DNA of 64,000 nucleotides from Elusimicrobiota bacterium (GTDB taxonomy: Bacteria > Elusimicrobiota > Elusimicrobia > UBA1565). A program made the translations under genes and the position numbers. Shown in pieces: positions 1,543 to 31,939 of this stretch. The notes under the pieces are model-generated. The model was given only the letters and a program-made list of their open reading frames with translations, had not been told where the DNA came from and made no database searches. Numbering within the stretch: position 1 is the stretch's first letter; each line of letters starts with the position of its first letter. The stretch covers positions 4,985-68,984 of the forward strand of contig JACRDO010000162.1 of NCBI GenBank assembly GCA_016212885.1, in the 5' to 3' direction.

Positions 1543-3210
1543 CTACCTGGCCTGCAAGTCCAACCCCGCGGCCTGCATGCCGTCGAAGTGAGCTAGGAGC
1601 CTCTCGAACCTCCGGTCAGAGGCGTTGAGCTTGGCTGCTTTCCGAAGGCATTCGACGGCTTCGTCTTTCCTGCCCTGGATCAGCAGGAACTCCCCCAGCT
1701 CGCCCCACAGCCGGCCGTTGAGCCGGTCCAGAGCGGCCGCGGCTCGCTGAAGCGAGACGGCCTCTTCAATGTCCTTCGGGTCGAGAGAAGAACGGTGGCG
1801 GATGAAATAAGCTTTGGCTAAGCCCCGCCGGGCTTCGACGCAGCGGCGGTCCATGCCCGCGGCGGAACGGAACTCCGCCATCGCGCCTTCCAAGGAGCCT
1901 GAAGCCAGCAGTTCCTCGCCGTGGACGCACTTGCGGCTCGCCAGAAGCGGCGAAACCAGCCAGGGCACAGCCGCCAAGGCCAAAACCGCCAGGAAGACCG
2001 CGGCAGCTTTGGGCGGCTTGAGGCCTGTCTTGATCGTCGGCGCCGCCGCAATGCCCATGAAGGCCGCCGCGGTCAGAAGGTTGACGAGGTATTCCATGCT
2101 CAGGCTGATGAGCCCGTAGGCCAGGAACAGCAGGAGCCCCAGCAGGAAAGGCCACCGGCTTTCGGCCCAGTCCCATCGCGAGCGGATGCGCGCCAACAGC
2201 CAGGCGACGAGCGCCAGCGCGCTCAAGAACCCCAGCAGTCCGGTCTCGGCGAGCAATCCCACGATGGAGCTGTGGGCGTAAAGGGTGTGCTGGACCGCTC
2301 CGGTCTTGTAGGCCAGGTAGGCGCTCGGGAAGTTCCCTGTCCCGACCCCGAGCCACGGATGGTCCGCGAACATCCTCAGCCCGCTCAGCCACCAGGACAG
2401 GCGCGAAAGCGACTCTCCCAGAGGGACCGGCGCGCCGTCCATGTCCATGGCGTGGAGGAGCTTCCAGGCGACCAGGGCGCAGCCTCCGGCGAGAAGAAGA
2501 ACGGCGGCCCCTGCCGCCTGTTTCGGGCGGCTGCGGACACGCTCTGCAAAGCTTCGTGGGCCGGCCAGCAGGGGCAGGCTCAGCACGAGGCAGAGCACAG
2601 CCCAGATGCTGTTGAGCAATAGCAGGCTCAGCAGGACGCAGAGCAGGCCGGAGGCCCAGAACCAGCGGGAGCGTGCGCGCCCTCTGTCCATGACGCGGCT
2701 CAGAAGCGGGGGGAACCAAAAGATCAGGAAGGCCGCAAGCAAGGTCGAGTTGACGAGGGTCCCGGGCGCCTGCGCCGCAAGGAAGTGCACGTGTTCGCAT
2801 CTCTGGCGGAGGATCAGGGGCAGCTCCAGCCAAAAGACCGGCACGACGGCCGAAAGGAATACGTCGGCCGCTTCCTCGGCGCGGAACGCGCTCAGCGCCG
2901 CGAGGAAGACCGCCGAAGCCGCGAGCCAGTCCATCCAGCCCAGCCGCGACTCGGCCGGGTGCACGGAGCCGAAAAACGAGAGGGAGAAAGCTGCCGCGAC
3001 GCCTCCAATGGGGGCCAGGAAATCGGCCGGGAAGTCCCGGCCCGAGGAATATGCGGAGCGCAAGATGAGCCCCGCGAGAATGGCCAGAGCCGCCAGGTAG
3101 ACGAGCGTCGCTGCCCAAAGGTCGTGGGCCCCGCGGGCCAGGGCGGAGAAAGCGACCAACAGTCCGAGGGTCCCGGCGAGGAGGCGGCCGCGGGGATAAG
3201 CTGCGGTCAT
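1543..3210 (-). CDS. O-antigen ligase-like (Wzy_C domain) polytopic membrane protein with C-terminal TPR repeats
   Basis: Many TM helices plus a Wzy_C-like periplasmic loop region, then a C-terminal TPR-like soluble tail (KAYFIRHRSSLDPKDIEEAVSLQRAAAALDRLNGRLW...). The start was set at MTAAYPRG (ATG at 3210), because the longer track ORF 1543..3546 would overlap the acyltransferase gene. Confidence 0.65.
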   Translation of the reverse strand: MTAAYPRGRLLAGTLGLLVAFSALARGAHDLWAATLVYLAALAILAGLILRSAYSSGRDFPADFLAPIGGVAAAFSLSFFGSVHPAESRLGWMDWLAASAVFLAALSAFRAEEAADVFLSAVVPVFWLELPLILRQRCEHVHFLAAQAPGTLVNSTLLAAFLIFWFPPLLSRVMDRGRARSRWFWASGLLCVLLSLLLLNSIWAVLCLVLSLPLLAGPRSFAERVRSRPKQAAGAAVLLLAGGCALVAWKLLHAMDMDGAPVPLGESLSRLSWWLSGLRMFADHPWLGVGTGNFPSAYLAYKTGAVQHTLYAHSSIVGLLAETGLLGFLSALALVAWLLARIRSRWDWAESRWPFLLGLLLFLAYGLISLSMEYLVNLLTAAAFMGIAAAPTIKTGLKPPKAAAVFLAVLALAAVPWLVSPLLASRKCVHGEELLASGSLEGAMAEFRSAAGMDRRCVEARRGLAKAYFIRHRSSLDPKDIEEAVSLQRAAAALDRLNGRLWGELGEFLLIQGRKDEAVECLRKAAKLNASDRRFERLLAHFDGMQAAGLDLQAR

Positions 3211-3341
3211 CGCCGGCGCGCGAGGATGGGCCGGCCGCCTTCCCCGCCGCACATGAGGCGCCGGAAGATCGGGCCGGACTCCTGCGGGAATAAAGAGACA
3301 ATTATGGCAGGGATCCTGCTCCTTCGCGCGTTTTTCACACC

Positions 3342-4187
3342 CTAATCGCCACCCCCCAGATTCAGTTTCTTCTCGTAGTATCGGCGGACGGCGGCGCTCA
3401 GCTTTCTCGCCGCGATCGTCGGGCTGTCCGTAGGTTCGAAGAATTCGTGAACCTGCATAGGCTTGTCGAACGAAAAGACCCATTGAGGCCGCCGAGGCGA
3501 GACCTCGCAGAGGCCCTCGCCCTTCATCAGACTCGGGGGATCGCACCGGATCGTGACCGGCAGCATGGGGCAGCCCGCCCGCGCCGCGATCTGGGCGAAG
3601 CCGCGGCTGAACGGGCCCAATCCGCCCCTCGGCGACCGGGTCCCCTCGGGGAAGAGGAGGATCGAGCGCCCGCGTTTGATGCGGAGGACCCCTTCCTCGA
3701 CGATGCCCGCCCCCCCGTCATTCGGCATGTAGCCCGCGGACCGCACGATGCCGCGCATGAAAAAGTTGTTCCAGAGATCCTTCTTGACGACGCAGTCGAC
3801 GCGCGGCATGCAGGAGATGAGGGCGACGACGTCGATGAGGGTGGGGTGGTTCGCTATGACGAGGGCGGGCGCGCAGCCGTTGAGATGCCCCAGGTTCTCG
3901 AAGCGCGGCTTCTCGGTCACGCGCACGAAATGCATGAACCATATGAAGAACCGGAAGGAATGATGAATCGCCCTCTGGATGCGGTCGGCCTTCTGGTCCC
4001 TCGTCCCGGGGAACATCCGGCAGGCCGGGAACACGCCGAAGCTCAGCATCAGGCTGCCTATGCCGAACATCGCGAAGGACAGGACTTTTGCGAAAACTCG
4101 CCAGCCCATCTCGAGTCTATCAATCACCTGGGATAGCCAGTCGCCTGATGTCCGGATATCCGCCTCGCTGAAAGCGGATTTTAACAT
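3342..4187 (-). CDS. 1-acyl-sn-glycerol-3-phosphate acyltransferase family (PlsC/LPLAT) protein
   Basis: HxxxxD-type motif (NHPTLIDV) and a FPEGTRS acceptor-binding motif. N-terminal TM anchor. Confidence 0.75.
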   Translation of the reverse strand: MLKSAFSEADIRTSGDWLSQVIDRLEMGWRVFAKVLSFAMFGIGSLMLSFGVFPACRMFPGTRDQKADRIQRAIHHSFRFFIWFMHFVRVTEKPRFENLGHLNGCAPALVIANHPTLIDVVALISCMPRVDCVVKKDLWNNFFMRGIVRSAGYMPNDGGAGIVEEGVLRIKRGRSILLFPEGTRSPRGGLGPFSRGFAQIAARAGCPMLPVTIRCDPPSLMKGEGLCEVSPRRPQWVFSFDKPMQVHEFFEPTDSPTIAARKLSAAVRRYYEKKLNLGGGD

Positions 4188-4249
4188 AATTCAAACGCGA
4201 CCGTTCGTCCGCCCGTGGGAGCTTGGGGAGCCGCTAAAAGGGTACAATT

Positions 4250-5752
4250 ATGCCGTCCTCTCGGACCCAAATGCTGGACAAGAACAAGATCCTCCTGGTC
4301 CATCCCCTCGGCTACCGCGCGGATGCCGCGGGCACGGACATATCGCGCCTCGCCAACATCATGCCCCCGCTGGGGCTGGCCAGCATGGCGGCCTATCTCG
4401 GCCAACGGGGGATCCGCGCCGATATAATCGACTGCTACGCGCGGCCGGATTCGGACAGCCGGATCCGCGGCCATCTCCTGGCCGAACAGCCGGCCTTCAT
4501 CGGACTGAGCTGCACCACGTCCAGCTTCCACGACGGCGTGCGCATCGCCGAGTTGGCCCAGCAGGCGCTGCCGGGCATCAAGAACGTTTTCGGCGGGGTG
4601 CATGTCTCCGCCATGAAAGAGCAGGCCCTCCGGGATTTCCCAGCCGTCGATTTCGCCGTGATCGGCGAGGGTGAGGCGACCCTGACGGAGCTGGTCCAAC
4701 GGGGGGCCGACGATCCCGCCGGGATCAAAGGGCTCGTCTACCGGGACGGGGATGCCCGAAACATCCGGTTCACGGGCCACCGGGACGGCGGGATCGCCCT
4801 GGACACCCTCCCCTTCCCGGCTTACGAGAAGCTCCCCGGGTTTCCCGACGCCTATCGGCTCCCCATCTTCAACTACCCGCGGGTCCCCAACACCAGCTGC
4901 ATCTCGAGCCGAGGCTGCCCCTACGCCTGCTCCTATTGCGACCGCTCCGTCTTCCGCCGCGGTTTCCGCTGCAACTCCGCCGAATACCTCTACGCACACC
5001 TGCGCTACCTGAAGGAGCGCTTCGGAATCCGCCATATCAATTTCTACGACGACCAGTTCACCTTCAACCGCGCCCGGGTGGAGGAGTTCGCGGGGCTGAT
5101 GATCGAGCGCCCCTTGGATATGACCTTCAACTGCGCCGCGCGGGCCGAACACATCGACCTGGACATGCTTCGGCTGATGAAGGCGGCCGGCTGCTGGATG
5201 ATGAGCCTGGGCATCGAAAGCGGCGATGAGCGGCTCCTGGCGCAGCACCGCCAGAACGTCCATCTGGACCTCCTGGCCGAGAAGATACGGCTCATCAAGC
5301 AGGCGGGGATCCGGACAAAGGGCCTGCTGATGATCGGACTGCCGGGGGAGACGGAAGGGAGCATCCGCCGGAGCATGGACTACGTGTTCTCGCTGCCCAT
5401 CGACGATTTCAATCTGGCGAAGTTCACCCCTTTCCCCGGCTCGCCGATCTACGAGCATATCCATGAACTGGGGGAGTTCGACGAAGATTGGGAGAAGATG
5501 GACTGCATGCACTTCCTCTTCGTCCCCAAAGGGATGAGCCGCGACCGTCTGGAGGAGCGGTTCAAGGCTTTCTACCGCGCCCACTTCGCGCGGCCGAAGG
5601 TGCTCTGGGGCTATGTCGCCATGCTGTGGCGCTCGCCGGACAGTTGGCTGCGCTTCCTCCGCGGCCTGTCCGGCTTCCTCCGGTACACCCGGACGACCCA
5701 GCGCTACACGGAGTCGCAACCGCGCGTCCGCAGCCTACGGACCAGGCAGTAG
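4250..5752 (+). CDS. B12-binding domain radical SAM protein (class B rSAM)
   Basis: N-terminal cobalamin-binding Rossmann-like region (KILLVHPLGY...DIIDC...), then a radical-SAM core with CxxxCxxC (SSRGCPYACSYCD). About 500 aa. Confidence 0.8.
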   Translation: MPSSRTQMLDKNKILLVHPLGYRADAAGTDISRLANIMPPLGLASMAAYLGQRGIRADIIDCYARPDSDSRIRGHLLAEQPAFIGLSCTTSSFHDGVRIAELAQQALPGIKNVFGGVHVSAMKEQALRDFPAVDFAVIGEGEATLTELVQRGADDPAGIKGLVYRDGDARNIRFTGHRDGGIALDTLPFPAYEKLPGFPDAYRLPIFNYPRVPNTSCISSRGCPYACSYCDRSVFRRGFRCNSAEYLYAHLRYLKERFGIRHINFYDDQFTFNRARVEEFAGLMIERPLDMTFNCAARAEHIDLDMLRLMKAAGCWMMSLGIESGDERLLAQHRQNVHLDLLAEKIRLIKQAGIRTKGLLMIGLPGETEGSIRRSMDYVFSLPIDDFNLAKFTPFPGSPIYEHIHELGEFDEDWEKMDCMHFLFVPKGMSRDRLEERFKAFYRAHFARPKVLWGYVAMLWRSPDSWLRFLRGLSGFLRYTRTTQRYTESQPRVRSLRTRQ

Positions 5753-8415
5753 GTGAGGAACGCCGCGAAGGTTCCGACAACCGGCCCGACGACCAGGGCG
5801 CCGAGGAACCACTCCCATAGCCGATGATGGACTTCCCCCAGCAGGGTCTGGCGGTTGAAGTCGGTCCAGAACCTGCCGAAGAGGAAGAGATGGCCCGCCT
5901 CGATGCAAAGGAGCGGCATGAACGGGGCGACGCATACGTTGCTGGCGCCGATCCCTGCGAGCTTGTTTAGGTGGAGCTTGTGGTTCGCGTAGAGGATCGT
6001 CGCCAGGCCGAACGGGATGATGGGAAGCGCGCCGATGCAGATGCCGACCCAGACCGCCGCGGCGAGCTCGCCCGCGCCGGCGTGCTCCTGGCTGATGCGC
6101 CGGAAGAACTGGAGTGGGCTCGTGAACTTGGGCACGATGCTCGTTTTCTCCGCCGCCCCGTACATGCAGCGATGCGGCCAGGGGAGCAGGGGACGGGCCA
6201 CCAGCCATGCATGGAGGCAGCTCAGGCGCAGATTGTCCTTTAGCGGATGGAAGTGGGACGCCCGTCCGTCCCCAGCCGGATAGCAGACTGAGACCGGAGT
6301 CGAGACGACCGGGAGTCCGGCCCACACCGCGCGGACTAAGACCTCCACCTCGAACGGATAGCGCTCGGAGATGAATTCTCCCGAGGTCAGGTATCCGACG
6401 GGATAGAGACGATAGCCGCTCTGTGTGTCCGGGATGGTCTGCCCGCACTCGATCCTGACCCAGAAATTGGAGAAATCCCTTCCGAAAACGCTGGACCGGG
6501 GCGCGTTGCCCGATTCCATGCGCCTGGCGCCGATGATGACGGCGGGCCAGTTGGACGCGGCAATCTCCAGAAGGCGCCGCCCATCGGCGGGGTCGTGCTG
6601 GCCGTCCGCATCGATGGTCAGGATGGCGTCATAACCGAGCTGCTTTGCGGCGGCCGCGCCCGCAAGGATGGCGGCCCCCTTTCCCCGGTTGACCGAGAGC
6701 CGGCGGCGCTCGATGGGAAGGCCGGCCACGGCATCGAGGCTTCCGTCCGTGCTCGCATCATCCACGACCATGACCGGGTACCCCTCGGCCAGAGCCCGTT
6801 CGACGACGCCCCGGACCATCCGGGCATGGTTGTAGACCGGTATCACCAGCAGGGTCTTCGGCGGGAGAGCTCCCGCCTGGGCCGCGCCCGCCGTCCCCGC
6901 CGTCGCCGGGACGGACTCGGGCGCGTGATCGTCCCGGCGGGCCGCCACCTCCAGCAGGATCCCGCCGGAGAACCAGGACTTGAAGAGATGCGTGGTGATC
7001 TCCCGCGGTTCGAACCCGGCGGCCCGCAGCATTGATTCGATCTCCCCGCCGGTGTAGGCCTTCAGCCAGATCCCCTGCCGCATGGCGTTGCCGATCCGCG
7101 CAAACAGCCGGATCAGGGAACGCCGGGCGGTGATGAAATAGAGGGTGCCGCCCGGCTCCACATGCCCGGCCAGGCGCCGGAGCAGGGCGGGGAGGTCAAA
7201 GACGTATTCGAAGCATGAGAAGGCGCAGACTACGGGGAATGTCCCCTCCAGTTCGATGTCTTCCAAGTCCCCGGCGACGGTCTTGATGTTGGAGAGTCCC
7301 GCCGCCGCTGACTTCTGCTGCAGGATGCGGAGCATGTTGCGGGAGATGTCCACGGCCACGATCTCGCGGCAGCGTCGCGCGATCGGAAGCGTGAAGATAC
7401 CCGTGCCGGCGCCCAGCTCCAGGACCCGGTCGGCCCCGGTGAAGAGCTCGGGGACGCGGGCGGTGAACAGCTCCAGCTCCTTGCGCCGCGCGATGGACAC
7501 GCCTGAGTCGAACTGCTCGCGGTCGTAGGCGCCGGCCAAGCCGTCGTAGAATAGTTCCGCCGCGTCCGGGCCCGGCGCCGGCTCGCCCGTCCGCATCACC
7601 TCTTTGCCGATGAGCCGGTCGAGGGGGAGTATCTCCAACCCCTTCGCCCGGAGTCCGGCGAGCAGCGCCGCGAACTCCCCCAGGAGCGCCGCGACGTTGC
7701 CCGTCCGCGGCGGGACGTCGTGAAGCAGAATGATGTCCCCAGGGGCCGCCTTGGCCAGCAGATGGGCTGAGAGTCCGACGACCCGCCGGTTGCCCATGTC
7801 GAAGGCGCGGCAGCTGAAATTGACGCAATAGAGACCCTCCTGGAGCAGGACCCGCCAGAGATGCGGGCTCGTGATTCCTACGGGAGGCCTGAAGGCGCGC
7901 GGCGTGACGCCGAACCGCTTCAATACGCGCTGAGCGGAACTCACCTCCGCCTCCAGGACGGACCTGCCCTTGATCATCAGGAACGGGGAGTGGCTGTAGG
8001 AGTGGTTGCCGATTGAGTGGCCGCGGGCGAGTATGTCCCGCACGATGTCGGGGTAGCGTTCGGCATTGACGCCGGTCATGAAGAAGGTCGCGCGCACGCC
8101 GTGCCTTTCCAGAAGGTCGAGCAGGAGCGGGGTCACCTGCGGATCCGGGCCGTCGTCGAAGGTGAGGGCCACGCCCCGCCGCCCATGACCCCGGGTGATG
8201 ATGGGCAGATAGAAGCTGAATCTCGGAAGGAACGAGGCCAGAAAGGACAGAAGGATGGCCGCCAGCAGCGGCACAAACGCCAGCTTGACGTTGAAGGGGA
8301 GCAGCAGCGCGAAGAGCTGCAGAGCGCCCAGCGCGACGAGATGAGCGGGCGCCAGCGGGCAGATCATCGAGCGCCTGCGTTCCTCGCGCCCTCTTGGCCC
8401 GGACCCGACGCTCAC
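5704..8415 (-). CDS. multidomain membrane enzyme: TM anchor, polysaccharide deacetylase (CE4/NodB), class I SAM methyltransferase, GT2 glycosyltransferase, DUF2062-like C-terminal TM region
   Basis: In N->C order: TM helices; NodB motifs (ALTFDDGPDP, HSYSH); SAM-binding VLELGAGTGIF; GT2 motifs (LLVIPVYNHARMV, VVDDASTDGS, DADGQHD); then a hydrophobic DUF2062-like tail. It is one continuous 903-codon frame. Its 3' end overlaps the convergent rSAM gene by about 49 nt. Confidence 0.7.
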   Translation of the reverse strand: MSVGSGPRGREERRRSMICPLAPAHLVALGALQLFALLLPFNVKLAFVPLLAAILLSFLASFLPRFSFYLPIITRGHGRRGVALTFDDGPDPQVTPLLLDLLERHGVRATFFMTGVNAERYPDIVRDILARGHSIGNHSYSHSPFLMIKGRSVLEAEVSSAQRVLKRFGVTPRAFRPPVGITSPHLWRVLLQEGLYCVNFSCRAFDMGNRRVVGLSAHLLAKAAPGDIILLHDVPPRTGNVAALLGEFAALLAGLRAKGLEILPLDRLIGKEVMRTGEPAPGPDAAELFYDGLAGAYDREQFDSGVSIARRKELELFTARVPELFTGADRVLELGAGTGIFTLPIARRCREIVAVDISRNMLRILQQKSAAAGLSNIKTVAGDLEDIELEGTFPVVCAFSCFEYVFDLPALLRRLAGHVEPGGTLYFITARRSLIRLFARIGNAMRQGIWLKAYTGGEIESMLRAAGFEPREITTHLFKSWFSGGILLEVAARRDDHAPESVPATAGTAGAAQAGALPPKTLLVIPVYNHARMVRGVVERALAEGYPVMVVDDASTDGSLDAVAGLPIERRRLSVNRGKGAAILAGAAAAKQLGYDAILTIDADGQHDPADGRRLLEIAASNWPAVIIGARRMESGNAPRSSVFGRDFSNFWVRIECGQTIPDTQSGYRLYPVGYLTSGEFISERYPFEVEVLVRAVWAGLPVVSTPVSVCYPAGDGRASHFHPLKDNLRLSCLHAWLVARPLLPWPHRCMYGAAEKTSIVPKFTSPLQFFRRISQEHAGAGELAAAVWVGICIGALPIIPFGLATILYANHKLHLNKLAGIGASNVCVAPFMPLLCIEAGHLFLFGRFWTDFNRQTLLGEVHHRLWEWFLGALVVGPVVGTFAAFLTYCLVRRLRTRGCDSV

Positions 8416-8502
8416 TTGGCAAGGATAGCAAAATTCCCGGCCGGGCTTCGTGCTGCTGCCTGCGCCTCTCAGGGCGCCAGGGTCACGGTGACGGAGTTGG
8501 AT

Positions 8503-10269: not shown

Positions 10270-10270
10270 G

Positions 10271-15010: not shown

Positions 15011-15145
15011 GGTTCATGATGTTACACAACCGTTCTTCTGCCGTCAAACCCTGCCTTGCCCCCGGCAGGCTATCTCTTAATGACCCATTTTGTTAAACTA
15101 AAAACTCGTCCGTCAACGACGAGCCAAACATCCGCGCGATCCGGC

Positions 15146-20233: not shown

Positions 20234-20263
20234 AGCGCCCGGCCTCTTTCTGATGCGCGCGCC

Positions 20264-20823: not shown

Positions 20824-20867
20824 TGATAAGGCTCCTCCCCATTTTGGCCAGACGTACCGCGCGCAGC

Positions 20868-23561: not shown

Positions 23562-24025
23562 AGCTCGCTCTCCTCAAGGAACCGCTCGATCTCCTTGGGC
23601 CGATACAGGTTCAACTGAGCGGCGACGAGCGTCCGCCGGGTTACGGCGTCCTGAACCGAACAATCGAAGACGAACAACTCCCCCTCCCCCCAGACGCGCC
23701 GCGCCGACACGTGCAGCGTCTGCCCCGGGGTGAAGCCCCGCGTCCGGATGTCGACGCGCCGCGAACCCAGCAGAAAGCCGACACTGGGCCCTACGCCGCG
23801 GGCCCGGTCGGCCATCCCGGCGTGGGCGGCCACGGCCTGCGCCATGTATTCCAGGCCGACCCAGGCCGGGACTTCCCCGTCCTCCAGGAACATCGACTCC
23901 GGGGTGAGAACCGCATCGCAGACGGTCCCCTGCGCGTCATGGCTGATGACGCGGCGCAAGAGCACCATGCGGCCGGAATGCGGCACGACGTCCCTTGCCT
24001 CTACCGGGGGTGTAAGAGTGTCCAT
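23558..24025 (-). CDS. hotdog-fold 3-hydroxyacyl-ACP dehydratase (FabZ/FabA-like, ApeI-like)
   Basis: About 150 aa with an FabZ-like core (GRMVLLRRVISHD ... AWVGLEYMAQ). Lies between the KS-like gene and fabG. Confidence 0.6.
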   Translation of the reverse strand: MDTLTPPVEARDVVPHSGRMVLLRRVISHDAQGTVCDAVLTPESMFLEDGEVPAWVGLEYMAQAVAAHAGMADRARGVGPSVGFLLGSRRVDIRTRGFTPGQTLHVSARRVWGEGELFVFDCSVQDAVTRRTLVAAQLNLYRPKEIERFLEESEL

Positions 24026-24780: not shown

Positions 24781-25994
24781 CGTTGCCTCCCTATGACCAC
24801 TGAGCAGTTGCTGCCGCCGAAGCCGAACGAATTGCTCATGAACGCGCGTCCCGCGCCGGTCTCGAGGAATTGGCCGGGCTTCGTCAGGGCGAGCGCGCAG
24901 AGGGCCGAGTCTTTCTCGCCGTCCCAGCAATGGGGCGGCAGGAGGATCTTCCCGTCGATGGGACTGGCCAGGGCGAGCCAGCAGAAACCGACCTCCATGG
25001 CGCCGGCTGCCCCCAGCGTATGCCCGATCAGCGGCTTGGTCGAACTCGCCGGCACTCCGGGCAGTATCCGTGAGACCGCCTTGCTCTCCATCTTGTCGTT
25101 GAGCTCCGTCCCCGTCCCATGTAGGTTGATGTAGTCGATGGCGCCGGCCTCCAAGCCCGCGTCCGCCAGCGCGGCGGCCATGGCCGCCGCCGCGCCGACC
25201 CCTTCCGGATCGGGGGCGGACATATGGTGGGCGTCGGAGGACTCTCCGACGCCCAGGAGCTGGATCCCGCCTTCGGCTCGGGTTAGAAGGAACAGCGCCG
25301 CCCCCTCCCCGACGTTGAACCCGCGGCGGTTGCGGCTCATGGAGTTGCACGGCGACTGCGAAGTCGCCTGCAGGGAGCCGAAGCCCTGGACGGTCAGCCG
25401 GCATAGGGAATCCGCGCCCCCCGTCATGACCGCGTCGCAGAGCCCCATCTCCAGCAGCGCCTGCGCGCAGGAGAAGACCTTGGCGCTGGAGGAACAGGCG
25501 GTCGAGAGGGTATAGGCCGGGCCCGAGACCCCGCAGCACTCGGCCAGGAAGAGCGCCAGTCCGCCCAACTCGTGCTGGGAGTAGGAGTAATCCGCGGGCG
25601 CCAGCCCCGTCTCCCGCCACGACGCATAGGCGGCCTCCGAGGCCGCGACTCCCGATGTGCTGGAGCCCATGACCACGCCGACGCGGGCGGGCCCGTGCTC
25701 CCGGACCGCGGCGCGCACCTCCGCCTCGATCTGCCGCAGCGCGCACAGGGCGAGCGAATTGTTGCGGCAGCGATAGCGCCTCAGGCCGTCCGGCACCTGG
25801 GGAAGCGCGGCGTCCACCCGTCCGACGCGGACCGACTGGCCGGGGAAGAGTTCCTCGTCCATGACCAGGGAGCCCTGGTCGCCTTGCGCCAGCCGGGTCC
25901 AGATCGTCCTGGTGTCCGACCCCAGCGAGTTCACCATCCCAAGGGCGGACAAGCGGCTGATGCCGCGCCCCGTCGCTTCCGTCCTGGGCCTCAC
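24774..25994 (-). CDS. beta-ketoacyl-ACP synthase (ApeO-like KS)
   Basis: Active-site Cys (TLSTACSSS); His motifs (INLHGTGTELND, KPLIGHTLGAAG); FGFGGSNCSVVI C-terminus. Start overlaps the lyase stop by 4 nt. Confidence 0.8.
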   Translation of the reverse strand: MRPRTEATGRGISRLSALGMVNSLGSDTRTIWTRLAQGDQGSLVMDEELFPGQSVRVGRVDAALPQVPDGLRRYRCRNNSLALCALRQIEAEVRAAVREHGPARVGVVMGSSTSGVAASEAAYASWRETGLAPADYSYSQHELGGLALFLAECCGVSGPAYTLSTACSSSAKVFSCAQALLEMGLCDAVMTGGADSLCRLTVQGFGSLQATSQSPCNSMSRNRRGFNVGEGAALFLLTRAEGGIQLLGVGESSDAHHMSAPDPEGVGAAAAMAAALADAGLEAGAIDYINLHGTGTELNDKMESKAVSRILPGVPASSTKPLIGHTLGAAGAMEVGFCWLALASPIDGKILLPPHCWDGEKDSALCALALTKPGQFLETGAGRAFMSNSFGFGGSNCSVVIGRQRW

Positions 25995-27556
25995 GGCCGC
26001 CCCCCCTCGTAGAGCCTCCAGGACTTGGCCCGCGCCTGCTCAAGGAGCCAGCGCAGATCCTCGTCCATGGGGCGATCCTCTTCGAGGAAGGGGACGTTCC
26101 GGCGCACCGCGGCGCTGAGTTCGCGGGCCTCTTCCGACAGCAGGCCCGGATCCAACTCGGCCCTCCGGGTCCGGATGTCCAGCCCCTGCAGGGCGCCCAG
26201 CAGCGCGGCCACCGCCACCTGCTCGCAAAGATCGAGGACGCGCAGACAGTCCCGGGCGGCGATGGTCCCCAGGCTGACCTTGTCCTGGTTATGGGACTCG
26301 GTCGAACGCGAGAAGACGCTGGCGGGCATGGCCAGCTTCAGGGCCTCGGCGGCCCAAGCGGAGGTTCCGATCTGCAGGGCTTTGAAGCCGTGATTGATGG
26401 GCGCCCGCTCGGCGGATGCCCCCGAAATGTTCGGCGGCAGGCCGTGGCTGGTCCGCGGATCGACCAGGAGCGCCATCTGGCGGTCCATAAGGTCAGCCAG
26501 GTTCGCCACAGCGGTCTTCATGCAGTCCATGACGAAGGCGATATGCCCGCCGTAGAAATTTCCCCCATGCAGGATCGTCCGGTTCGGGCCGTCGACGATA
26601 GGGTTGTCGTTGACGCTGTTGAGCTCCGTCTCGATCTGCCGGCGCATCCAGGGCATCGCGTCCGCCAGCACGCCGATGATGTGAGGCGCGCATCGGATAG
26701 AGTAGCTGTCCTGAAGCCGGCGGCCAGCGGCTTCGCCGCCCTTGTCGAGGCAGCGCTGCAGGTCCGTCCGGATCCACGCCGCGACCTGGGCCGGGCCCGG
26801 GTGGCCCTTCAGCTCGAAGAGACGCGCGTCGAACTGACCCGGGTTCCCCTTCAGGGCGATGGCGGCGAAGGCCGTGATCCGGCTCGCCAAGCGAGCGAGG
26901 TAGGAGGCCCGGTCGAAGGCGAGGCAGGCCAGGGCGGTCATCACGCTCGTCCCGTTCATGACTGCCAATCCTTCCTTGGGCGCGAGCTTCAGCGGCTGCC
27001 GCCCTATCTCCCGATGGACGTCGGCCGCGCTCCGGCGCCGGCCCTCATAGACCACATCGCGTTCGCCGATCAAAGCCGCGGCCACGTAGGACAGGGGCGT
27101 CAGGTCCCCGCTGGCGCCCACCGAGCCTTCCTCCGGGATCAGGGGCAGGATCGGCCGGTTGATGAAATCCGCCAGGCGCTCGAGGAGCACCCAGCGCACC
27201 CCGGAATAGCCCCGGGCGAGGGAGGCGAGCCTGGCCGCGAGGATGGCCCGGGTCGCGGGCTCGTCGAACATCCGCCCCAGCCCGCAGCCGTGATACCGCG
27301 TTATTTGCCGCGGCAGCTCCTCCACGAGCGCGTTGGGGATCCTGCGGTCCAGGGAAAAGCCGTACCCCGTGTTCACCCCGTAGACGCTCGCGTTCCCCCG
27401 CCACAGGTCGTCGACGAACTCCACCCCGCGGTCCACCCGCTCGCGCCACTGCGGGTCGTCGGAGAGCGACACCCGGGCGCCCCCCGTGGCCAAGGCCAGG
27501 ATGTCTTCTATCGTCCAACTCCCGCCGCCGGCGATGACGTCGCGCTCCGAACTCAC
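25991..27556 (-). CDS. aromatic amino-acid ammonia-lyase (HAL/TAL/PAL family)
   Basis: Ala-Ser-Gly MIO-forming triad in GSVGASGDLTPLS. 521 aa, typical family length. Confidence 0.85.
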   Translation of the reverse strand: MSSERDVIAGGGSWTIEDILALATGGARVSLSDDPQWRERVDRGVEFVDDLWRGNASVYGVNTGYGFSLDRRIPNALVEELPRQITRYHGCGLGRMFDEPATRAILAARLASLARGYSGVRWVLLERLADFINRPILPLIPEEGSVGASGDLTPLSYVAAALIGERDVVYEGRRRSAADVHREIGRQPLKLAPKEGLAVMNGTSVMTALACLAFDRASYLARLASRITAFAAIALKGNPGQFDARLFELKGHPGPAQVAAWIRTDLQRCLDKGGEAAGRRLQDSYSIRCAPHIIGVLADAMPWMRRQIETELNSVNDNPIVDGPNRTILHGGNFYGGHIAFVMDCMKTAVANLADLMDRQMALLVDPRTSHGLPPNISGASAERAPINHGFKALQIGTSAWAAEALKLAMPASVFSRSTESHNQDKVSLGTIAARDCLRVLDLCEQVAVAALLGALQGLDIRTRRAELDPGLLSEEARELSAAVRRNVPFLEEDRPMDEDLRWLLEQARAKSWRLYEGGRP

Positions 27557-28554
27557 GTTCGTCCACCCCAGAAATCATAGAAATTGAACCACTGATAAGG
27601 CGCTTTGCGGCAGTAGAACTCCAGCCGCAGGGCATACCGCCGCAGGAGATAGTCGAGCCGCTCATCGCGCGACCGGCGCGGCAGCACGATGCGGTCGGCA
27701 AACTCCTCCGCGTAGAGTTCATATGTCCGGTCTCCGGTCCGCAGCCCGAAGGTCAGCATGACCGGGCACTCCAGCAGACTCGCCAGGATCAACGGGCCCT
27801 GGGGGAAGGCGGCCTCCCGCCCCAGGAAGGGGATCCAGGATGTCCGCTCATGCCTCCCTCCGCTCTTGGGTCCGACCCGATCTCCGTGTATGGCGATCAA
27901 TTCGCCTCGCCGGATGCATTGCAGGAGCTCGAAGACCGTCTCAACGCTGGAGGGAGCGTATTCCACGATGCGGATGTTCCCCTGGCTGTGAAGCCGCTTG
28001 AGCTCGGTGGAGATGTTCCGGGAATTGCCGCGGAACATCAGGGCGTTGATGGTGATCCCCAGCCTCTCCGCGAGGATCCGCATGACGTCGATGCTGCCCA
28101 GATGCGCGCCGAGCAGAACCGCTCCCCGCTTCTCGCGCGCCAGACGTTCCAGCAGGTCGTGCCCATGTCGGGAGAACACGTAGTCGCGGGTCTCGCCGCT
28201 GATGATGGCCGGCCGGTCCAGGATCATCCGCGCGAACTCCAGGAAATGCCTGAAAACGTGCCGCCAGGTGGGCGCTCCGGGGCCGGGCATCGAGTCGGGG
28301 TGCTCCAATCTCAGACGCAGGAAATAATCCAGGGAAGCGCGGCGTTCCCGGGCATGCCGCAGGAAGAAATACGCCACGATGGGATAGAGCAGCGCCGCAG
28401 CGACGCGCCGGCCGCAGAGGCGGTAGGTCCACAACATGAAGGTTATTCCCCACCGGGAGCCCTTCTCTCCCAGATGGTACCATCGCGGCGCCTGGCCCGC
28501 GCGGGTCTGCGCAGCCGACTTCGACCTCGGCTCGCCGCTCAGGGTGGCGGTCAT
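27553..28554 (-). CDS. LpxL/HtrB-like lipid A biosynthesis acyltransferase family protein (ApeD-like LPLAT)
   Basis: N-terminal hydrophobic anchor. Family-typical length (333 aa) and sequence pattern. Positioned as in APE clusters. Confidence 0.65.
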   Translation of the reverse strand: MTATLSGEPRSKSAAQTRAGQAPRWYHLGEKGSRWGITFMLWTYRLCGRRVAAALLYPIVAYFFLRHARERRASLDYFLRLRLEHPDSMPGPGAPTWRHVFRHFLEFARMILDRPAIISGETRDYVFSRHGHDLLERLAREKRGAVLLGAHLGSIDVMRILAERLGITINALMFRGNSRNISTELKRLHSQGNIRIVEYAPSSVETVFELLQCIRRGELIAIHGDRVGPKSGGRHERTSWIPFLGREAAFPQGPLILASLLECPVMLTFGLRTGDRTYELYAEEFADRIVLPRRSRDERLDYLLRRYALRLEFYCRKAPYQWFNFYDFWGGRT

Positions 28555-28603: not shown

Positions 28604-30532
28604 TCATGCGCCGCCCGCTGCGGCCTGCGGGGACGGTTCTCCGAGAATGAACCGGCCCGAGGAGAACAGGACGTCCCCGTCGGCGAACTCATAGAAGAGC
28701 TTCTCCTCGCCCCCGGTCCGCTTCACAACCACACGCAGCGAGAACTCGCGTCCGGGCAGGAGCAGTTCCCTGAACTTCACCGCCTCCATCTCTTTGAGGG
28801 CCGGGACCCGGCCCAGAAGCTCGGAGGCCGCCATCCACGCCCATTTCGTCTGGACCACGCCGGGCACGACCGGAAATTCCGGGAAATGCCCATCCAGATA
28901 TCCCAGATCGGGAGGGACGCGCAGGCGCAGCGTGATCTTATCCGATGTCCGGACGCGTTCCAGGCGCTCCGGCTGCGTCACCGCCGGGTCGTAGGGTGGA
29001 TGAAAGAGCCGCTTGAGCGCCGGCGCGGTCGTCTTGCCTTGGGCATCCATCGGGAACGCGTCCACATAGCGGAAGTGTCTCGGCAGCGTAACGGGCTCGA
29101 AATGTCGCCGCAGATGCTCCCGGAGGGTTCGGCTGATCGAACCTAAGCCGTTTGGAAAGTTCGATGCGCCGTTCGGAAGTTCGGGACGCCCCGGCTTCAG
29201 GAGCTGCCGCTGAGCGGACGCCTTCAGCACCACGACCGCTCCCACGAAATCGCGCGCGGGCCGCCCGGCGCCCTGAAGGATGACCAACCTCGCATGGGCC
29301 ACCCAGGGATGGGCCTGGAGCCGGCGTTCCATCTCATCGAGCGAAAACCTCTCCTCGGCGATCTTGGCGATCCGGTCCACGCGGCCGAAGACCCGGAACC
29401 GCCCGTCCTCCAGGACCGCGCCGCGATCCCCCATCATCTGGGCGGGGGAGTCCTTGCCGGCCTCGGCGAACGGCGAGCGCACTTGCAGCTGGTCCGGGCC
29501 GGCGCCGGCCCCCGCGATGGAGACGCTCACCCCTTCGAGAGGCCTCCAGTCGGCGCCGGCCCCCTCGCCGCATTGCCGGCGCCAGCCTACGCCGCCGGTT
29601 TCGGTGGAACCGAACACCTCGATAGGCGCGCAGCCCGTCCGCGCCAAGACGGCTTCGGACGAGGAGAGCTTCAGGAGACATCCGGAGGAGAAGATCGCGC
29701 GGCACCCCAGGCCCCCGGGCGGCACATCCGACGCCTGGTCGATACGGTCCAGATGGACCGGCGAGCTGATGATGCATCCGGCCGCTTGTCGGCGCATCGC
29801 GGCGAAGATCTCCTCCCAGAAGAAGAACGTTTGGGCATGGAAAGGCCGCCCCGCGCATAGGGGCCAGAGCAGCCGGAACAGCATGCCGTAGATGTGCTGA
29901 TGGGAAACGGTGGCGAACACCGAACACGCCCCCAGGCGCTCTCCGAAAGTCCGCTCCAAGACGGCCACTTCCTCTTCGAGCTGCGCCACGGCCTTGACGA
30001 CCCGCTTGCTCTCCCCGGTCGAACCGGACGTGAACAACTCGACGCACTTCCTGGACGGGTCCAGCCGCCGCCAGTGGAAGGAGCCCGTCCCTCCGGCCGC
30101 GGGCTTAAGCCACCGCTGTCCGGTGGCCCGGGGCGCGATGTCGCCGATCCCGCCCTCCAGAGTCCCCAGGCACTCCGCGATGCTGCCGGGCCGGAGGTTG
30201 GGAGGCAGGACAGCAACGTTGTCAGTCTGCCACAGAGCGCACAGCCCCACCGCGAAAGAATAGCTCGATCCGCAGGCCAGCAGCCATCGGCCGTTCCGTT
30301 CTCCCCCGAGGCGGATGCACATGTCCGCGACCGCGCCGCGGAAACCGCGCCAATCCACCGGCCGGTCATGGTCGAAGGCGACCAAACCGTCCGGGGGGCG
30401 CTCCTGAGTCAGAAGATCCGACAGACGCGAGAAGCGCAGTCGTTGAGTCATGCGCGCAATCCCGGCCCGGGGCGCATCGGCGGCGGCCTCCGGAAAGTCT
30501 GGAACGTCTCCGGCCTCAGGGAACCCGGGCAT
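28604..30532 (-). CDS. AMP-dependent ligase (acyl/aryl-CoA or ACP ligase) with fused C-terminal hotdog dehydratase domain
   Basis: AMP-binding P-loop TSGSTGESK. The C-terminal roughly 130 aa carry FabA/Z-like DGHFPEFPVVPGV. Confidence 0.75.
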   Translation of the reverse strand: MPGFPEAGDVPDFPEAAADAPRAGIARMTQRLRFSRLSDLLTQERPPDGLVAFDHDRPVDWRGFRGAVADMCIRLGGERNGRWLLACGSSYSFAVGLCALWQTDNVAVLPPNLRPGSIAECLGTLEGGIGDIAPRATGQRWLKPAAGGTGSFHWRRLDPSRKCVELFTSGSTGESKRVVKAVAQLEEEVAVLERTFGERLGACSVFATVSHQHIYGMLFRLLWPLCAGRPFHAQTFFFWEEIFAAMRRQAAGCIISSPVHLDRIDQASDVPPGGLGCRAIFSSGCLLKLSSSEAVLARTGCAPIEVFGSTETGGVGWRRQCGEGAGADWRPLEGVSVSIAGAGAGPDQLQVRSPFAEAGKDSPAQMMGDRGAVLEDGRFRVFGRVDRIAKIAEERFSLDEMERRLQAHPWVAHARLVILQGAGRPARDFVGAVVVLKASAQRQLLKPGRPELPNGASNFPNGLGSISRTLREHLRRHFEPVTLPRHFRYVDAFPMDAQGKTTAPALKRLFHPPYDPAVTQPERLERVRTSDKITLRLRVPPDLGYLDGHFPEFPVVPGVVQTKWAWMAASELLGRVPALKEMEAVKFRELLLPGREFSLRVVVKRTGGEEKLFYEFADGDVLFSSGRFILGEPSPQAAAGGA

Positions 30533-30543
30533 TACCCCGCCTT

Positions 30544-30786
30544 CTAAGTCCTCTTGAAGATGACTTCAACGACGTCCTGGACAGTCCGGATGGACCGCAG
30601 CTCGGATTCCACCAGCTTGATCCCGGTCTCGGTCTCCAGCTTGACCGCCAAGTCGATGGCATCGATGCTGTCGAGATCCAGATCCTCGAATAGTTTGGCG
30701 TCGGGCTTGACGGCTTCCCTGTCGATTCCAAACTCCTTTACGAACACGTCGGTGATCTTTTGAGTTATCTGTTCTTTGGTGCCCAT
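30544..30786 (-). CDS. acyl carrier protein
   Basis: 80 aa with the phosphopantetheine-site motif DLDSID. Confidence 0.8.
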   Translation of the reverse strand: MGTKEQITQKITDVFVKEFGIDREAVKPDAKLFEDLDLDSIDAIDLAVKLETETGIKLVESELRSIRTVQDVVEVIFKRT

Positions 30787-30795
30787 GCCCTTGCT

Positions 30796-31095
30796 CTACC
30801 CACCCAGCGGAGGCTTCGGCGTGTCGCGGCGGTTCTCAGCGACGAACACGGCCAGGTTCCGCACGCTTGCGAAATGGTGTATGTTCATCGAGACGTCGCC
30901 GTCCATCTGGATCCGGTATTTCTTCCCGATCACGATCGCCAGTTCCAGAGCGTCGATGGAATCGAGGCCGAGCCCCTCCACGAACAGAGGCTGCGTGCTG
31001 TCTATGTCTTTGGGCTGGATGTCCGGAAGTTCCAGCGCCTCGATCAGCAGTCCTTTGAGTTCCGACTCAAGGGCGGAAAGGTCATGATCCTGCAT
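30796..31095 (-). CDS. acyl carrier protein (second, tandem)
   Basis: 99 aa with GLDSIDALEL. Tandem ACPs are characteristic of APE-type clusters. Confidence 0.75.
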   Translation of the reverse strand: MQDHDLSALESELKGLLIEALELPDIQPKDIDSTQPLFVEGLGLDSIDALELAIVIGKKYRIQMDGDVSMNIHHFASVRNLAVFVAENRRDTPKPPLGG

Positions 31096-31186
31096 GGCTC
31101 AGCCGGCCGTGTTCCGAATCATATTGCGTTCCTCCGCGAAACCTCTTAACTTTCCACGTTTGATTTTACCTTAATTCCAGCTATTT

Positions 31187-31939
31187 TTGCATTCCATGCG
31201 GCCAACCGGATTTGACCCGCCGATGGCGTGTTGTCTAATATTGATCTCGATGCGATATTCAACCGCAGGTTTTCCATTTAGCCGCCGGCTCGGGCGCTGC
31301 TGCCTCATCGGCTTCCTGCTGTCCGGCGGCGGCTGCCTTCCGGTCATGAAGGACTATGCGGGGCACCGGGTATTCAACCCAATGTACCTCTTCTATCTGG
31401 AGTGGGGATTGCGCGATAAGTGGCAAAAGCCCGACGAGGTGATCACCGCCCTGGAGCTGCCGCCCTCGGCCGTGGTGGCAGACATCGGGGCCGGCGGCGG
31501 CTACTTCACCGAGAAGTTCTCCGCCGCGGTGGGGCCCTCCGGGCGCGTCTACGCTACGGACGTGCAGGAGGTCATGATCAAGCGGCTCGGCAAGCGGGTG
31601 GGGCGGCGCGGCCTCGGGAACGTCTCGGTGGTCCGCGGAGGGTTCCACGACACGATGCTTCCCGAGTCCTGCTGCGACCTGGCGTTCTTTTCAAGCGTCT
31701 ACAAGGAAATCGACGCCCGGATCAGCTACATGAGGAATGTCCGCAGGATCCTCAAGCCCGGCGGTCGGGTGGCGATCCTCGAATACCGCCGGGACGTCGA
31801 CGCGCCGGGCCCGGAGCCGGGATCGCGCCTGGCGCAGGAGCAGGTGATCGACGAGATGCAGTCGGCGGGCTTCGTGCTCCTCAAGAGCCTCGATTTCCTG
31901 CCGCGGGAGTACTTCCTGGTCTTCGGCGCGGCCCCTTGA
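31187..31939 (+). CDS. class I SAM-dependent methyltransferase (ApeB-like position)
   Basis: SAM-binding VADIGAGGGYFT. The start is uncertain: internal Met candidates are MRYSTAG, preceded by a hydrophobic stretch that could be a signal peptide, and MKDYAGHR. Confidence 0.65.
   Translation: MHSMRPTGFDPPMACCLILISMRYSTAGFPFSRRLGRCCLIGFLLSGGGCLPVMKDYAGHRVFNPMYLFYLEWGLRDKWQKPDEVITALELPPSAVVADIGAGGGYFTEKFSAAVGPSGRVYATDVQEVMIKRLGKRVGRRGLGNVSVVRGGFHDTMLPESCCDLAFFSSVYKEIDARISYMRNVRRILKPGGRVAILEYRRDVDAPGPEPGSRLAQEQVIDEMQSAGFVLLKSLDFLPREYFLVFGAAP

Follow-up and report, generated by a model that had tools for sequence, protein, structure and literature searches.

A radical-SAM-rich envelope-lipid locus of aryl-polyene type in an Elusimicrobiota bacterium

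Introduction

Do the radical S-adenosylmethionine (rSAM) genes that lie among the aryl-polyene (APE)-type genes of an Elusimicrobiota bacterium belong to the same pathway, and is such a locus peculiar to this genome? The question is raised by a 64,000-nucleotide stretch (the window) of contig JACRDO010000162.1 (assembly GCA_016212885.1, positions 4,985 to 68,984, forward strand), in which the interval 1543–31939 had been given a preliminary description as an APE-type locus greatly expanded with rSAM and glycolipid-tailoring enzymes. All of the APE-type genes and additional domains listed there are present according to Pfam and NCBIfam. Reading from sequence, we put at about 70% the probability that the interval encodes one integrated envelope-lipid pathway, i.e. 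an APE-type type II polyketide synthase/fatty acid synthase (PKS/FAS) cluster within the ‘TIGR04072 / ladderane-like’ B12-rSAM family. TIGR04072, with the short name rSAM_ladder_B12, is the NCBIfam/TIGRFAM model for a ‘lipid biosynthesis B12-binding/radical SAM protein’.

Conservation across related loci

The evidence that carries this reading comes from other genomes. A HMMER scan for the tandem rSAM protein g10 (genes are numbered as in Table 1) returned 1312 representative proteins at E ≤ 1e-30. In a genome scan with an alignment of its C-terminal half, relatives turned up in at least 573 species genomes, from Nitrospirota, Geobacterales, Desulfobacterota, Omnitrophota, Planctomycetota and further groups; for the single B12-rSAM protein, g3, 496 relatives came from a metagenome scan. 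Neighbours were counted within 10 kb, in 50–52 genome loci of at least 15 kb and in 22 metagenome g3 loci of at least 14 kb. In the genome loci the gene corresponding to the g10 C-half (rSAM-C) is accompanied by a counterpart of the N-half (rSAM-N, 50/52), a ketosynthase (KS, 48–49/52), a GT2-DUF2062 glycosyltransferase (48/50), an LpxL-like acyltransferase (49/50), an acyl carrier protein (ACP, 46/50), an MMPL exporter (44/50), an ApeK-like thioesterase (46/50) and an ApeP-like dehydratase (32/50). The usual order in the metagenome loci is rSAM-N, rSAM-C, g3, (GT2-DUF2062), LpxL, ACP, KS, and in 31 of 35 loci the g10C-type gene is immediately followed by g3. Across about 165 related loci, the rSAM and glyco-tailoring genes recur together and interleaved with the same FAS/PKS, acyltransferase and export genes, which supports their assignment, in the preliminary description, to one system with the APE core; this recurrence and interleaving indicates that the rSAM genes are integral and not a neighbouring operon.

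Individual loci show the same association, with the rSAM genes kept beside the core in the genome GWA2_69_24, in L089, in Geomonas and in L157. L089, on a 3.47 Mb contig, has GT1, hydrolase-rSAM, rSAM-N, rSAM-C, g3, LpxL, ACP, KS and chain-length factor (CLF) in one operon, beside which lie GT2-DUF2062, a CE4-methyltransferase (CE4-MT) and PlsC. In cultured Geomonas paludis (L087) a single operon holds ligase, lyase, ApeP, LolA, MMPL, ApeI, thioesterase, KS, g3, ACP, KS and CLF; CE4-MT and GT2-DUF2062 are close to it and LpxL is also present. The set in L157 comprises CE4-MT-GT2, rSAM-C, g3, LpxL, GT1, hydrolase-rSAM, ACP, ligase, ApeI, lyase and LolA. The hydrolase-rSAM fusion of g5 type always adjoins a GT1 of g6 type (L005, L011, L014, L016, L055, L089, L154 and L157), the GT1 being 44–67% identical across these eight loci. 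In L005, L011, L014, L016 and L055, which belong to Nitrospirota, Geobacteraceae and Thermodesulfovibrionia metagenome-assembled genomes (MAGs), the GT1 (60–67%) and the hydrolase-rSAM (47–67%) share the same operon.

Nearest of all is the locus of the MAG Elusimicrobia bacterium GWA2_69_24 (L012 and L085, both on a single contig), syntenic at 45–90% identity. Two antisense arrangements of the window are kept there, viz. LolA (−), rSAM-N and rSAM-C (+), g14 and KS onwards (−), and ACP, ACP, PlsC (−), g3 (+), CE4-MT-GT2 (−). Its PlsC/g3/g4 block adjoins the ACPs, the orthologue of g2 (74% identical) is likewise divergent from g3, and a ligase-dehydratase fusion of the g22 type is found in L085. 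The genes for the outer-membrane β-barrel, the WD40 protein and the DUF4410 lipoprotein are missing, a PMT_2-like protein lies downstream of DUF3261, and MMPL and LolA are separated by an additional AMP-binding gene. A metagenome contig from JGI with identical gene coordinates repeats the PlsC/g3/g4 side.

Identity is unevenly distributed over these genes. Against Geomonas and L089, g3 is 73–75% identical, the domains of g4 are 57–63% identical to the split genes of L087 and L089 (67–71% to a fusion in L086), and g10N reaches 64% in L089, compared with 30–36% for KS and 27–29% for LpxL and, in Geomonas, 33% for the lyase and 24% for MMPL. With 57–79% for the rSAM/CE4-MT-GT2 set versus 24–36% for the PKS-type genes, the rSAM and head-group enzymes form the conserved signature and the PKS-type part is variable. 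The relation between core and expansion is thus better read in reverse, with the rSAM/CE4-MT-GT2 set as the most conserved part. The low identity (33%) between the lyase of the window and GWA2_69_24 and that of Geomonas suggests that the lyase was recruited more than once. Within the window, the nearest matches of g10, g5 and g6 are of Nitrospirota/Geobacteraceae type (60–77%) and those of g3 and g4 of Geobacter type (57–79%), so that the locus looks like a rearranged mosaic of cassettes that form co-directional operons elsewhere.

Comparison with aryl-polyene clusters

The APE clusters of E. coli CFT073 and Xenorhabdus doucetiae comprise apeA–R (PMC8253772, bioRxiv 10.1101/2020.12.19.423268). 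When the 18 Ape proteins of the CFT073 locus (L170) were compared with the window proteins by BLASTP and phmmer, 15 of the 18 had counterparts, on 14 window genes and at 26–56% identity, which bears out the APE-type core first proposed; the counterparts named are ApeC, D, E, F, H, I, J (split in two), L, M, N, O, P, Q and R. The APE core set used by Grammbitter et al. is KS apeO/R, ACP apeE/F, CLF apeC, dehydratases (DH) apeI/P, ketoreductase (KR) apeQ and the transporter apeM. The locus has KS of ApeO and ApeR type, an ApeC-type CLF, tandem ACPs (ApeE/ApeF), ApeI- and ApeP-type DH with PF22818 and PF22817 scores above the cut-offs, and an ApeQ-type KR. The export set is complete, with ApeM (MMPL, g8), ApeL (LolA-like, g9) and ApeN (DUF3261, g7), and counterparts of the starter ligase ApeH (the N-terminal part of g22) and of the anchoring proteins ApeD (g2) and ApeJ (g4 GT2 and g21) are present. 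The PlsC protein and the GT2 had been counted among the expansions; their similarity to ApeD (35%) and to the N-terminal part of ApeJ (37%), respectively, makes them canonical APE parts instead. Pfam domain scans found an enoyl-reductase domain in none of the genes of the interval, which fits a conjugated polyene product.

Tandem ACPs, KS/CLF with a second KS, anchoring by acyltransferases and GT2, export by MMPL/LolA/DUF3261 and the lack of an enoyl reductase are therefore common to the window and the APE clusters, whereas rSAM, CE4, GT1 and ammonia-lyase genes, all four present in the window, are absent from the annotated gene list of the E. coli cluster. The starter in APE synthesis is 4-hydroxybenzoate, whereas in the window it probably arises via the ammonia-lyase. 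APE clusters are carried by Proteobacteria and Bacteroidetes, and the window-type family mostly by lineages that are largely anaerobes, which would fit oxygen-sensitive, B12-dependent tailoring.

Two arrangements of the anchoring and release genes may be recorded here. In L003 (3551–5338) and L004 (4094–5932) the GT2 and the LpxL-like domain form one protein of 595–612 aa, like E. coli ApeJ, while in the window the GT2 is separate from the LpxL-like g21 and fused instead to CE4-MT. GWA2_69_24 (L085 3693–4100) has an ApeK-type 4HBT thioesterase between KS and lyase, and the window has none (n=2); chain release may be performed by the hydrolase domain of g5 in place of the ApeK thioesterase.

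The radical-SAM enzymes

The CxxxCxxC motif is kept in all four rSAM domains (4/4), and matches to PF02310 and PF04055 back the B12-binding and rSAM assignments first made from the translations. g10 consists of two B12-binding and two Radical_SAM stretches with two CxxxCxxC motifs, and its C-half (residues 453–893) is a full member of TIGR04072, scoring 623.5 bits where the cut-off is 360. Of 94 related loci, 91 have the two halves as neighbouring separate genes, and only L003 and L004 have them fused, so that the N-type adjoins the C-type in 93 of 94 loci (91 split, 2 fused); the fused tandem is also found in the proteins P0001 and P0002.

g3, with the motif CPYACSYC, scores below cut-off with both BchE (182.5 bits, cut-off 481) and HpnJ (171.3 bits, E 3e-50, cut-off 577.6). 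It is 100% identical to P0174 from ‘Elusimicrobia bacterium’ and has relatives in at least 120 protein clusters at 71–79% identity, including the cultured Geomonas paludis and Geomonas sp. RF6. BchE and HpnJ, the next-best named relatives of g3, carry out ring chemistry, and those of the g10 C-half, BzaD and TsrM, are B12-dependent methylases of aromatic sp2 carbon. PDB sequence searches with the rSAM proteins returned distant relatives only (AprD4, TokK, TsrM, CysS), from which no function is transferable to these domains. The third rSAM protein, g5, matched no NCBIfam equivalog.

Related clusters in the literature

The closest described relative is the ‘ladderane/PUFA’ (polyunsaturated fatty acid) cluster of Kuenenia and Desulfotalea. 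Rattray et al. reported in 2009 that the Kuenenia cluster kuste3335–3352 is syntenic with one in Desulfotalea psychrophila, which nevertheless has no ladderanes (PMC2649909). The gene list of Javidpour et al. (2016) for kuste3335–3352 comprises two adjacent rSAM, a phenylacetyl-CoA-type ligase, three FabF, two ACPs, FabG, FabZ, a glycosyltransferase, a deacetylase-like protein and two methyltransferases; on heterologous expression no product was obtained and the rSAM proteins were undetected (PMC4790861). The Kuenenia and Desulfotalea (DP1853–1860) clusters share with the window an adjacent rSAM pair in a FASII-like cluster, several FabF-type KS (one non-canonical), two ACPs, FabG, a hotdog dehydratase, an aryl-CoA-type ligase, a glycosyltransferase, a polysaccharide-deacetylase-like protein and SAM methyltransferases, a likeness drawn from the published gene lists and the short name of TIGR04072. 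Beyond these clusters, the window has a third, BchE/HpnJ-like B12-rSAM, the hydrolase-rSAM fusion, the ammonia-lyase and the full Ape export set. A phytoene-desaturase-like oxidoreductase domain, sought as a feature of the Kuenenia clusters, was found nowhere in 1543–32962 and is present in L003.

‘Ladderane’ clusters with no known function have been reported in antiSMASH surveys from many non-anammox phyla (PMC9902471), and so have ‘aryl polyene-ladderane’ hybrids (PMC8277422). The APE literature searched does not discuss rSAM enzymes, and searches for TIGR04072 and for Geobacter with aryl polyene and radical SAM found no papers. The novelty of rSAM genes in an APE-like cluster, as put forward in the preliminary description, was nonetheless overstated in view of the 2009 description, the TIGR04072 model and the antiSMASH survey reports, and the notion of a unique ‘expanded’ APE locus was dropped after the genome and metagenome scans. 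This kind of cluster is known bioinformatically and is uncharacterised, and the window is neither unique nor categorically new; it is a new version that combines predicted aryl priming with a fused tandem rSAM, a triple-fused CE4-MT-GT2 and flipped rSAM genes.

Flexirubin clusters resemble the window in having an aromatic ammonia-lyase beside APE-type KS/CLF/KR/DH, which implies a cinnamate-type aryl starter. g20 differs from the flexirubin lyase FlxA, however, with 318 bits on NF053541 against a cut-off of 700, and dialkylresorcinol genes (DarA/DarB; KSIII or type III PKS domains) were not found in the interval. We know of no flexirubin cluster described with rSAM genes.

Proposed pathway and alternative explanations

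On the one-pathway reading, g20 would make an aryl-acrylic acid, most likely p-coumarate, to be loaded on ACP g23 or g24 by the ApeH-like ligase of g22, and it is probable from sequence that g20 supplies the aryl starter; a Tyr-His pair, aligned by eye, lies at what we take to be the selectivity position. Extension is predicted to proceed by KS/CLF g19/g18, KS g15, KR g16 and the dehydratases g17 and g22 (C-terminal domain), and its product, as there is no enoyl reductase, would be a conjugated polyenoyl-ACP. The known APE lipid is APE-GalNAc-phosphate-glycerol with a second polyenoyl chain (bioRxiv 10.1101/2020.12.19.423268). The anchoring step is modelled on this Xenorhabdus lipid of hexosamine-phospho-glycerol type, such that g2, g21 and the GT2 of g4 would put one or more acyl chains on a hexosamine-containing glycerolipid or glycolipid. 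The CE4 domain would then de-N-acetylate the sugar and the fused N-methyltransferase-like domain, whose nearest solved relatives are phosphoethanolamine and peptide N-methyltransferases, could methylate the freed amine, with a second sugar added by the GT1 g6. The rSAM domains of g10N, g10C, g3 and g5 are candidates for oxygen-independent C–H chemistry, whether on the ACP-bound chain (C-methylation or C–C bond formation) or on the amino-sugar (an HpnJ-like rearrangement). MMPL g8, LolA-like g9 and DUF3261 g7 would export the lipid to the outer membrane. That the B12-rSAM trio g10N, g10C and g3 performs chemistry new to ketoacyl lipids, perhaps C–C ring closure or sp2 C-methylation on the growing conjugated polyenoyl-ACP, is possible and is put forward tentatively.

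Some related clusters contain genes for PagL-like lipid A deacylases, in L087 (14351–15040, Geomonas paludis) and L002 (19671–20252), or a MipA gene, in L001 (14969–15784), which hints that the anchor is perhaps lipid A-related. L001 and L002 (ENA ERZ25039549 and ERZ25039513), in which rSAM, KS and GT2 are in fragments, look frameshift-rich and their gene calls are unreliable. g14 was considered as a PagL- or MipA-type enzyme and rejected, having no similarity to the L087, L002 and L001 genes.

Several observations weigh against the proposed pathway or limit it. A lyase is found within 10 kb in one of 50 genome loci and in 3–7 of the 22 metagenome loci, and a ligase in one of 50 and two of 22; with most loci of the family lacking both, the rSAM chemistry cannot depend on the aryl head group. 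A FabG-type KR occurs within 10 kb in only 1/50 genome loci, and the family is thus not uniformly polyene-type. g20 falls below the cut-offs of all HAL, TAL (BagA, FlxA) and PAL models of NCBIfam (the best being an HAL subfamily at 407 bits vs 524), which leaves the aryl starter unproven, and the substrates proposed for all four rSAM domains are guesses. ApeA, ApeB, ApeG and ApeK gave no phmmer match at E ≤ 0.01 in any frame of the 64 kb window; these proteins, which include a ring methyltransferase (ApeB) and a thioesterase (ApeK), are encoded by accessory genes outside the APE core set. The methyltransferase g25 has neither a BLASTP or phmmer match to ApeB nor a homologue in related loci, and the pair of GT1 and hydrolase-rSAM was not found in the part of the GWA2_69_24 contig covered here. 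With g1, g11, g12, g13 and g25 unconserved in relatives, the true cluster is also smaller than 1543–31939.

The scarcity of lyase and ligase beside the rSAM module would also be expected if rearrangement had joined two adjacent pathways, one for an ordinary APE pigment (lyase, ligase, KS/CLF, KR, DH and ACPs) and one for a separate rSAM lipid (the rSAM trio, GT1 with hydrolase-rSAM, and CE4-MT-GT2), making two molecules. The mosaic affinities of g10/g5/g6 and g3/g4 and the position of both B12-rSAM genes in separate antisense transcription units point the same way, and three KS-type genes with two ACPs could serve two chains. However, a single lipid with two polyenoyl chains is what the canonical APE cluster makes as well, and the LpxL-like protein, the GT2-DUF2062 and the KS/CLF set, which every rSAM module carries, are single-copy in the window. 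The genes of the window are moreover interleaved and do not merely adjoin, as they are, together with lyase and ligase, in GWA2_69_24, Geomonas and L157, and we regard two pathways as unlikely. A single pathway leaves room for g3, and possibly other rSAM enzymes, to act on the sugar head group, giving a rearranged or C-methylated amino-sugar anchor by analogy with HpnI, HpnK and HpnJ. In hopanoid synthesis HpnI adds GlcNAc and HpnK deacetylates it, steps reportedly described by Schmerk et al. in 2015, and ring contraction by HpnJ yields a cyclitol ether. Here, too, GT2, deacetylase and B12-rSAM (for the role of HpnJ see PMC9204698) are encoded next to one another, in g4 and g3. Among NCBIfam models g3 matches HpnJ second best, after BchE, the PlsC/g3/CE4-MT-GT2 block is kept with its orientation in the window and GWA2_69_24, and GT2-DUF2062 directly follows g3 in many operons. 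This likeness is an analogy only, as g3 scores well short of the HpnJ cut-off, hopanoid genes are absent, and the deacetylase is of the CE4 family. HpnK belongs to the different YdjC family. In most loci, furthermore, g3 lies between the rSAM pair and LpxL-ACP-KS, and CE4-MT is within 10 kb in only 5/22 g3 loci, so that a head-group role for g3 seems rather doubtful.

Whether the product is a ladderane, i.e. a concatenated cyclobutane lipid, is a question posed by the name rSAM_ladder_B12 and the antiSMASH label, by the full membership of the g10 C-half in TIGR04072 and by the gene content, which parallels kuste3335–3352 (PMC4790861). Ladderanes are known only from anammox Planctomycetota, though, while relatives of this family are spread over many non-anammox phyla, and Desulfotalea psychrophila has the syntenic cluster and no ladderanes. 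Recent anammox work favours another cluster, kustE3603–3608, and the present locus lacks genes for an enoyl reductase and a phytoene-desaturase-like protein and does have aryl-starter genes; a ladderane product is hardly credible. An assembly or binning artefact, or a decaying state of the rSAM genes, might be suspected from the metagenome-assembled source and from the unusual antisense orientation and overlapping 3′ ends. The open reading frames (ORFs) and motifs are intact, though, third-codon-position G+C (GC3) is native, orthologues are 70–79% identical, and the antisense arrangements are repeated in GWA2_69_24 and, on the PlsC/g3/g4 side, in the JGI contig, which makes such an origin very improbable.

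Gene content and organisation of the locus

Genes were called by codon-position G+C (GC3 frame analysis) and then confirmed with Pfam and NCBIfam, since long spurious ORFs are frequent at the G+C content of the window (about 66%). All ORFs of the cluster are intact, with native GC3 values of 0.81–0.91 and intact catalytic motifs (Table 1). The genes had been described as one translationally coupled minus-strand run. This holds for the hydrolase-rSAM g5 and for the coupling inside blocks, which is tight (4-nt overlaps, 9–50 nt gaps; the ATG of g7 at 12076 abuts the stop of g8). Both B12-rSAM genes lie on the plus strand, where their frames (4271–5752 and 15146–17767) match Pfam and agree with GC3 frame analysis, while the overlapping minus-strand ORFs have no Pfam match; the run is thus broken into at least three blocks, 31095–17748, 15010–5704 and 4187–1543.

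Table 1. Genes of the interval 1543–31939 (window coordinates)
Gene	Product	Position	Strand	Evidence
g1	Wzy_C (O-antigen-ligase-like) polytopic membrane protein with C-terminal TPR	1543–3546	−	Pfam Wzy_C 40 bits, TPR
g2	PlsC-type acyltransferase, ApeD counterpart	3342–4187	−	PF01553 80 bits; 35% to E. coli ApeD
g3	B12-binding rSAM, BchE/HpnJ-like clade, antisense to neighbours	4271–5752	+	PF02310, PF04055
g4	Membrane-anchored CE4 deacetylase + class-I methyltransferase + GT2-DUF2062 fusion	5704–8415	−	Pfam
g5	α/β-hydrolase (GHSTG) + rSAM + partial SPASM/twitch fusion	8503–10269	−	Pfam
g6	GT1-family glycosyltransferase, paired with g5	10271–11506	−	Pfam Glyco_tran_28_C/UDPGT
g7	DUF3261 lipoprotein, ApeN counterpart	11507–12076	−	PF11659 110 bits; lipobox LLLPGC; 26% to ApeN
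g8	MMPL/RND exporter, ApeM counterpart	12073–14418	−	PF03176; 29% over 733 aa to ApeM
g9	LolA-like periplasmic carrier, ApeL counterpart	14411–15010	−	PF19574/PF03548; 31% to ApeL
g10	Tandem B12-rSAM fusion, unnamed N-type + TIGR04072 C-type, antisense to neighbours	15146–17767	+	Pfam
g11	Small outer-membrane β-barrel protein	17748–18302	−	PF13505; signal peptide
g12	WD40 propeller + caspase (Peptidase_C14)	18371–20233	−	Pfam; ‘caspase, EACC1-associated type’ and PADLOC caspase models
g13	DUF4410 lipoprotein, lineage-specific	20264–20884	−	PF14366; lipobox
g14	Secreted β-rich protein, probably outer-membrane	20868–21530	−	no Pfam family
g15	Ketosynthase, ApeR counterpart	21604–22839	−	Pfam KS N and C domains; 53% to ApeR; Cys/His/His triad
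g16	3-ketoacyl-ACP reductase (FabG), ApeQ counterpart	22836–23561	−	adh_short_C2 176 bits; 56% to ApeQ
g17	ApeP-type hotdog dehydratase	23558–24025	−	PF22817 56.6 bits; 30% to ApeP
g18	CLF-like KS partner (Ketoacyl-synt_2), ApeC counterpart	24001–24780	−	PF13723 144 bits; 28% to ApeC
g19	Ketosynthase, ApeO counterpart	24774–25994	−	Pfam; 42% to ApeO; catalytic Cys/His/His
g20	MIO-type aromatic amino-acid ammonia-lyase	25991–27556	−	PF00221 519 bits; ASG/MIO motif
g21	LpxL-like acyltransferase, ApeJ C-terminal counterpart	27553–28554	−	PF03279; 39% over 311 aa to ApeJ 250–549
g22	Adenylating ligase (ApeH-like) + ApeI-type dehydratase fusion	28604–30532	−	PF00501, PF22818; 29% to ApeH, 29% to ApeI
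g23	ACP, ApeF counterpart	30544–30786	−	PF00550; 47% to ApeF
g24	ACP, ApeE counterpart	30796–31095	−	PF00550; 46% to ApeE
g25	Class-I SAM methyltransferase, divergent from ACPs	31187–31939	+	Pfam

The convergent 3′ ends overlap by 49 nt at g3/g4 (5704–5752) and 20 nt at g10/g11 (17748–17767); the g3/g4 overlap is kept in GWA2_69_24 at 11 nt (L085 11448–11458). Read-through of the minus-strand operons would make RNA antisense to the rSAM genes. Rfam and tRNA scans of the whole window gave no match, and neither a cobalamin nor a SAM riboswitch precedes the rSAM genes. The overall count in a sigma-70 and terminator scan of 1200–19000 was not above chance, and its sole two sigma-70-like promoter matches both fall at 15019–15116 on the minus strand, in the 135-bp divergent spacer between LolA and g10.

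Among the individual genes, g4 retains the motifs TFDDG and HSYSH (CE4), VLELGAGTG (MT) and DADGQH (GT2). The start of g1 is probably the ATG at 3210, and its membership of the cluster is doubtful, with a homologue in at most one of about 72 large related loci; that of g25 is uncertain. Four further genes of the interval were absent from the preliminary description, encoding the outer-membrane β-barrel g11, the WD40-caspase protein g12, the DUF4410 lipoprotein g13 and the secreted β-rich protein g14, the last of which has an orthologue (45% identical) at the same position in L012. g11 and g13 have no homologue in related loci; g11 is lineage-specific, with an uncertain role in the cluster. g12, with one weak phmmer match among 72 large loci and no copy in L012, is probably an unrelated insertion. 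The stretch g11–g13 (17748–20884), missing from the syntenic GWA2_69_24 locus and with no convincing homologue in related loci, looks like a lineage-specific insertion, possibly a conflict or signalling module.

The flanking genes indicate that the outer limits 1543–31939 are roughly right. On the left, a ParE toxin (841–1146) and an ‘Unstab_antitox’ antitoxin (1143–1412), both on the minus strand with a 4-nt overlap, directly adjoin the cluster (841–1412). On the right a lipoprotein is followed by DsbD_2, an ECF sigma factor and a Ser/Thr kinase; the lipoprotein (32030–32962, minus strand) has the lipobox LLACGC and a zinc-protease-like HEAGH motif, matches no Pfam family and has no homologue in related loci. 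Further along the window, 61487–63388 (minus strand) encodes a 633-aa protein with ternary-complex-associated domain 9 (TCAD9, 209 bits) and isochorismatase-like and APH-kinase-like regions. Stretches of low G+C (0.51–0.55 vs about 0.66) lie at 35577–37442, 42700–44000 and 50430–51665, and ORFs of the first and third of these, the two scanned, have no Pfam match.

Implications

A 2026 review lists only ladderanes and jawsamycin as ketoacyl lipids for which modification by rSAM enzymes has been suggested (PMC13459092). Modification of fatty-acid- and polyketide-type lipids by these enzymes is almost unexplored, and B12-rSAM lipid chemistry is undemonstrated for both of the named cases. In the loci described here, an APE-like envelope-lipid pathway found in hundreds of species has three or four rSAM domains as a constant component, and antiSMASH ‘ladderane’ calls outside anammox bacteria mostly mark the TIGR04072 family, not ladderanes. 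A coloured product is to be expected of the aryl-primed versions, those of the window and of cultured Geomonas paludis among them, so that loss of each rSAM gene would be easy to read out. If the B12-rSAM trio does carry out new chemistry on a polyenoyl-ACP, its product would represent an outer-membrane lipid class that is new and widespread among anaerobes. As the anammox clusters contain enzymes of this family too, the aryl-polyene versions, with their built-in chromophore and cultured Geomonas carriers, would then be the first tractable system for ‘ladderane-type’ rSAM function.

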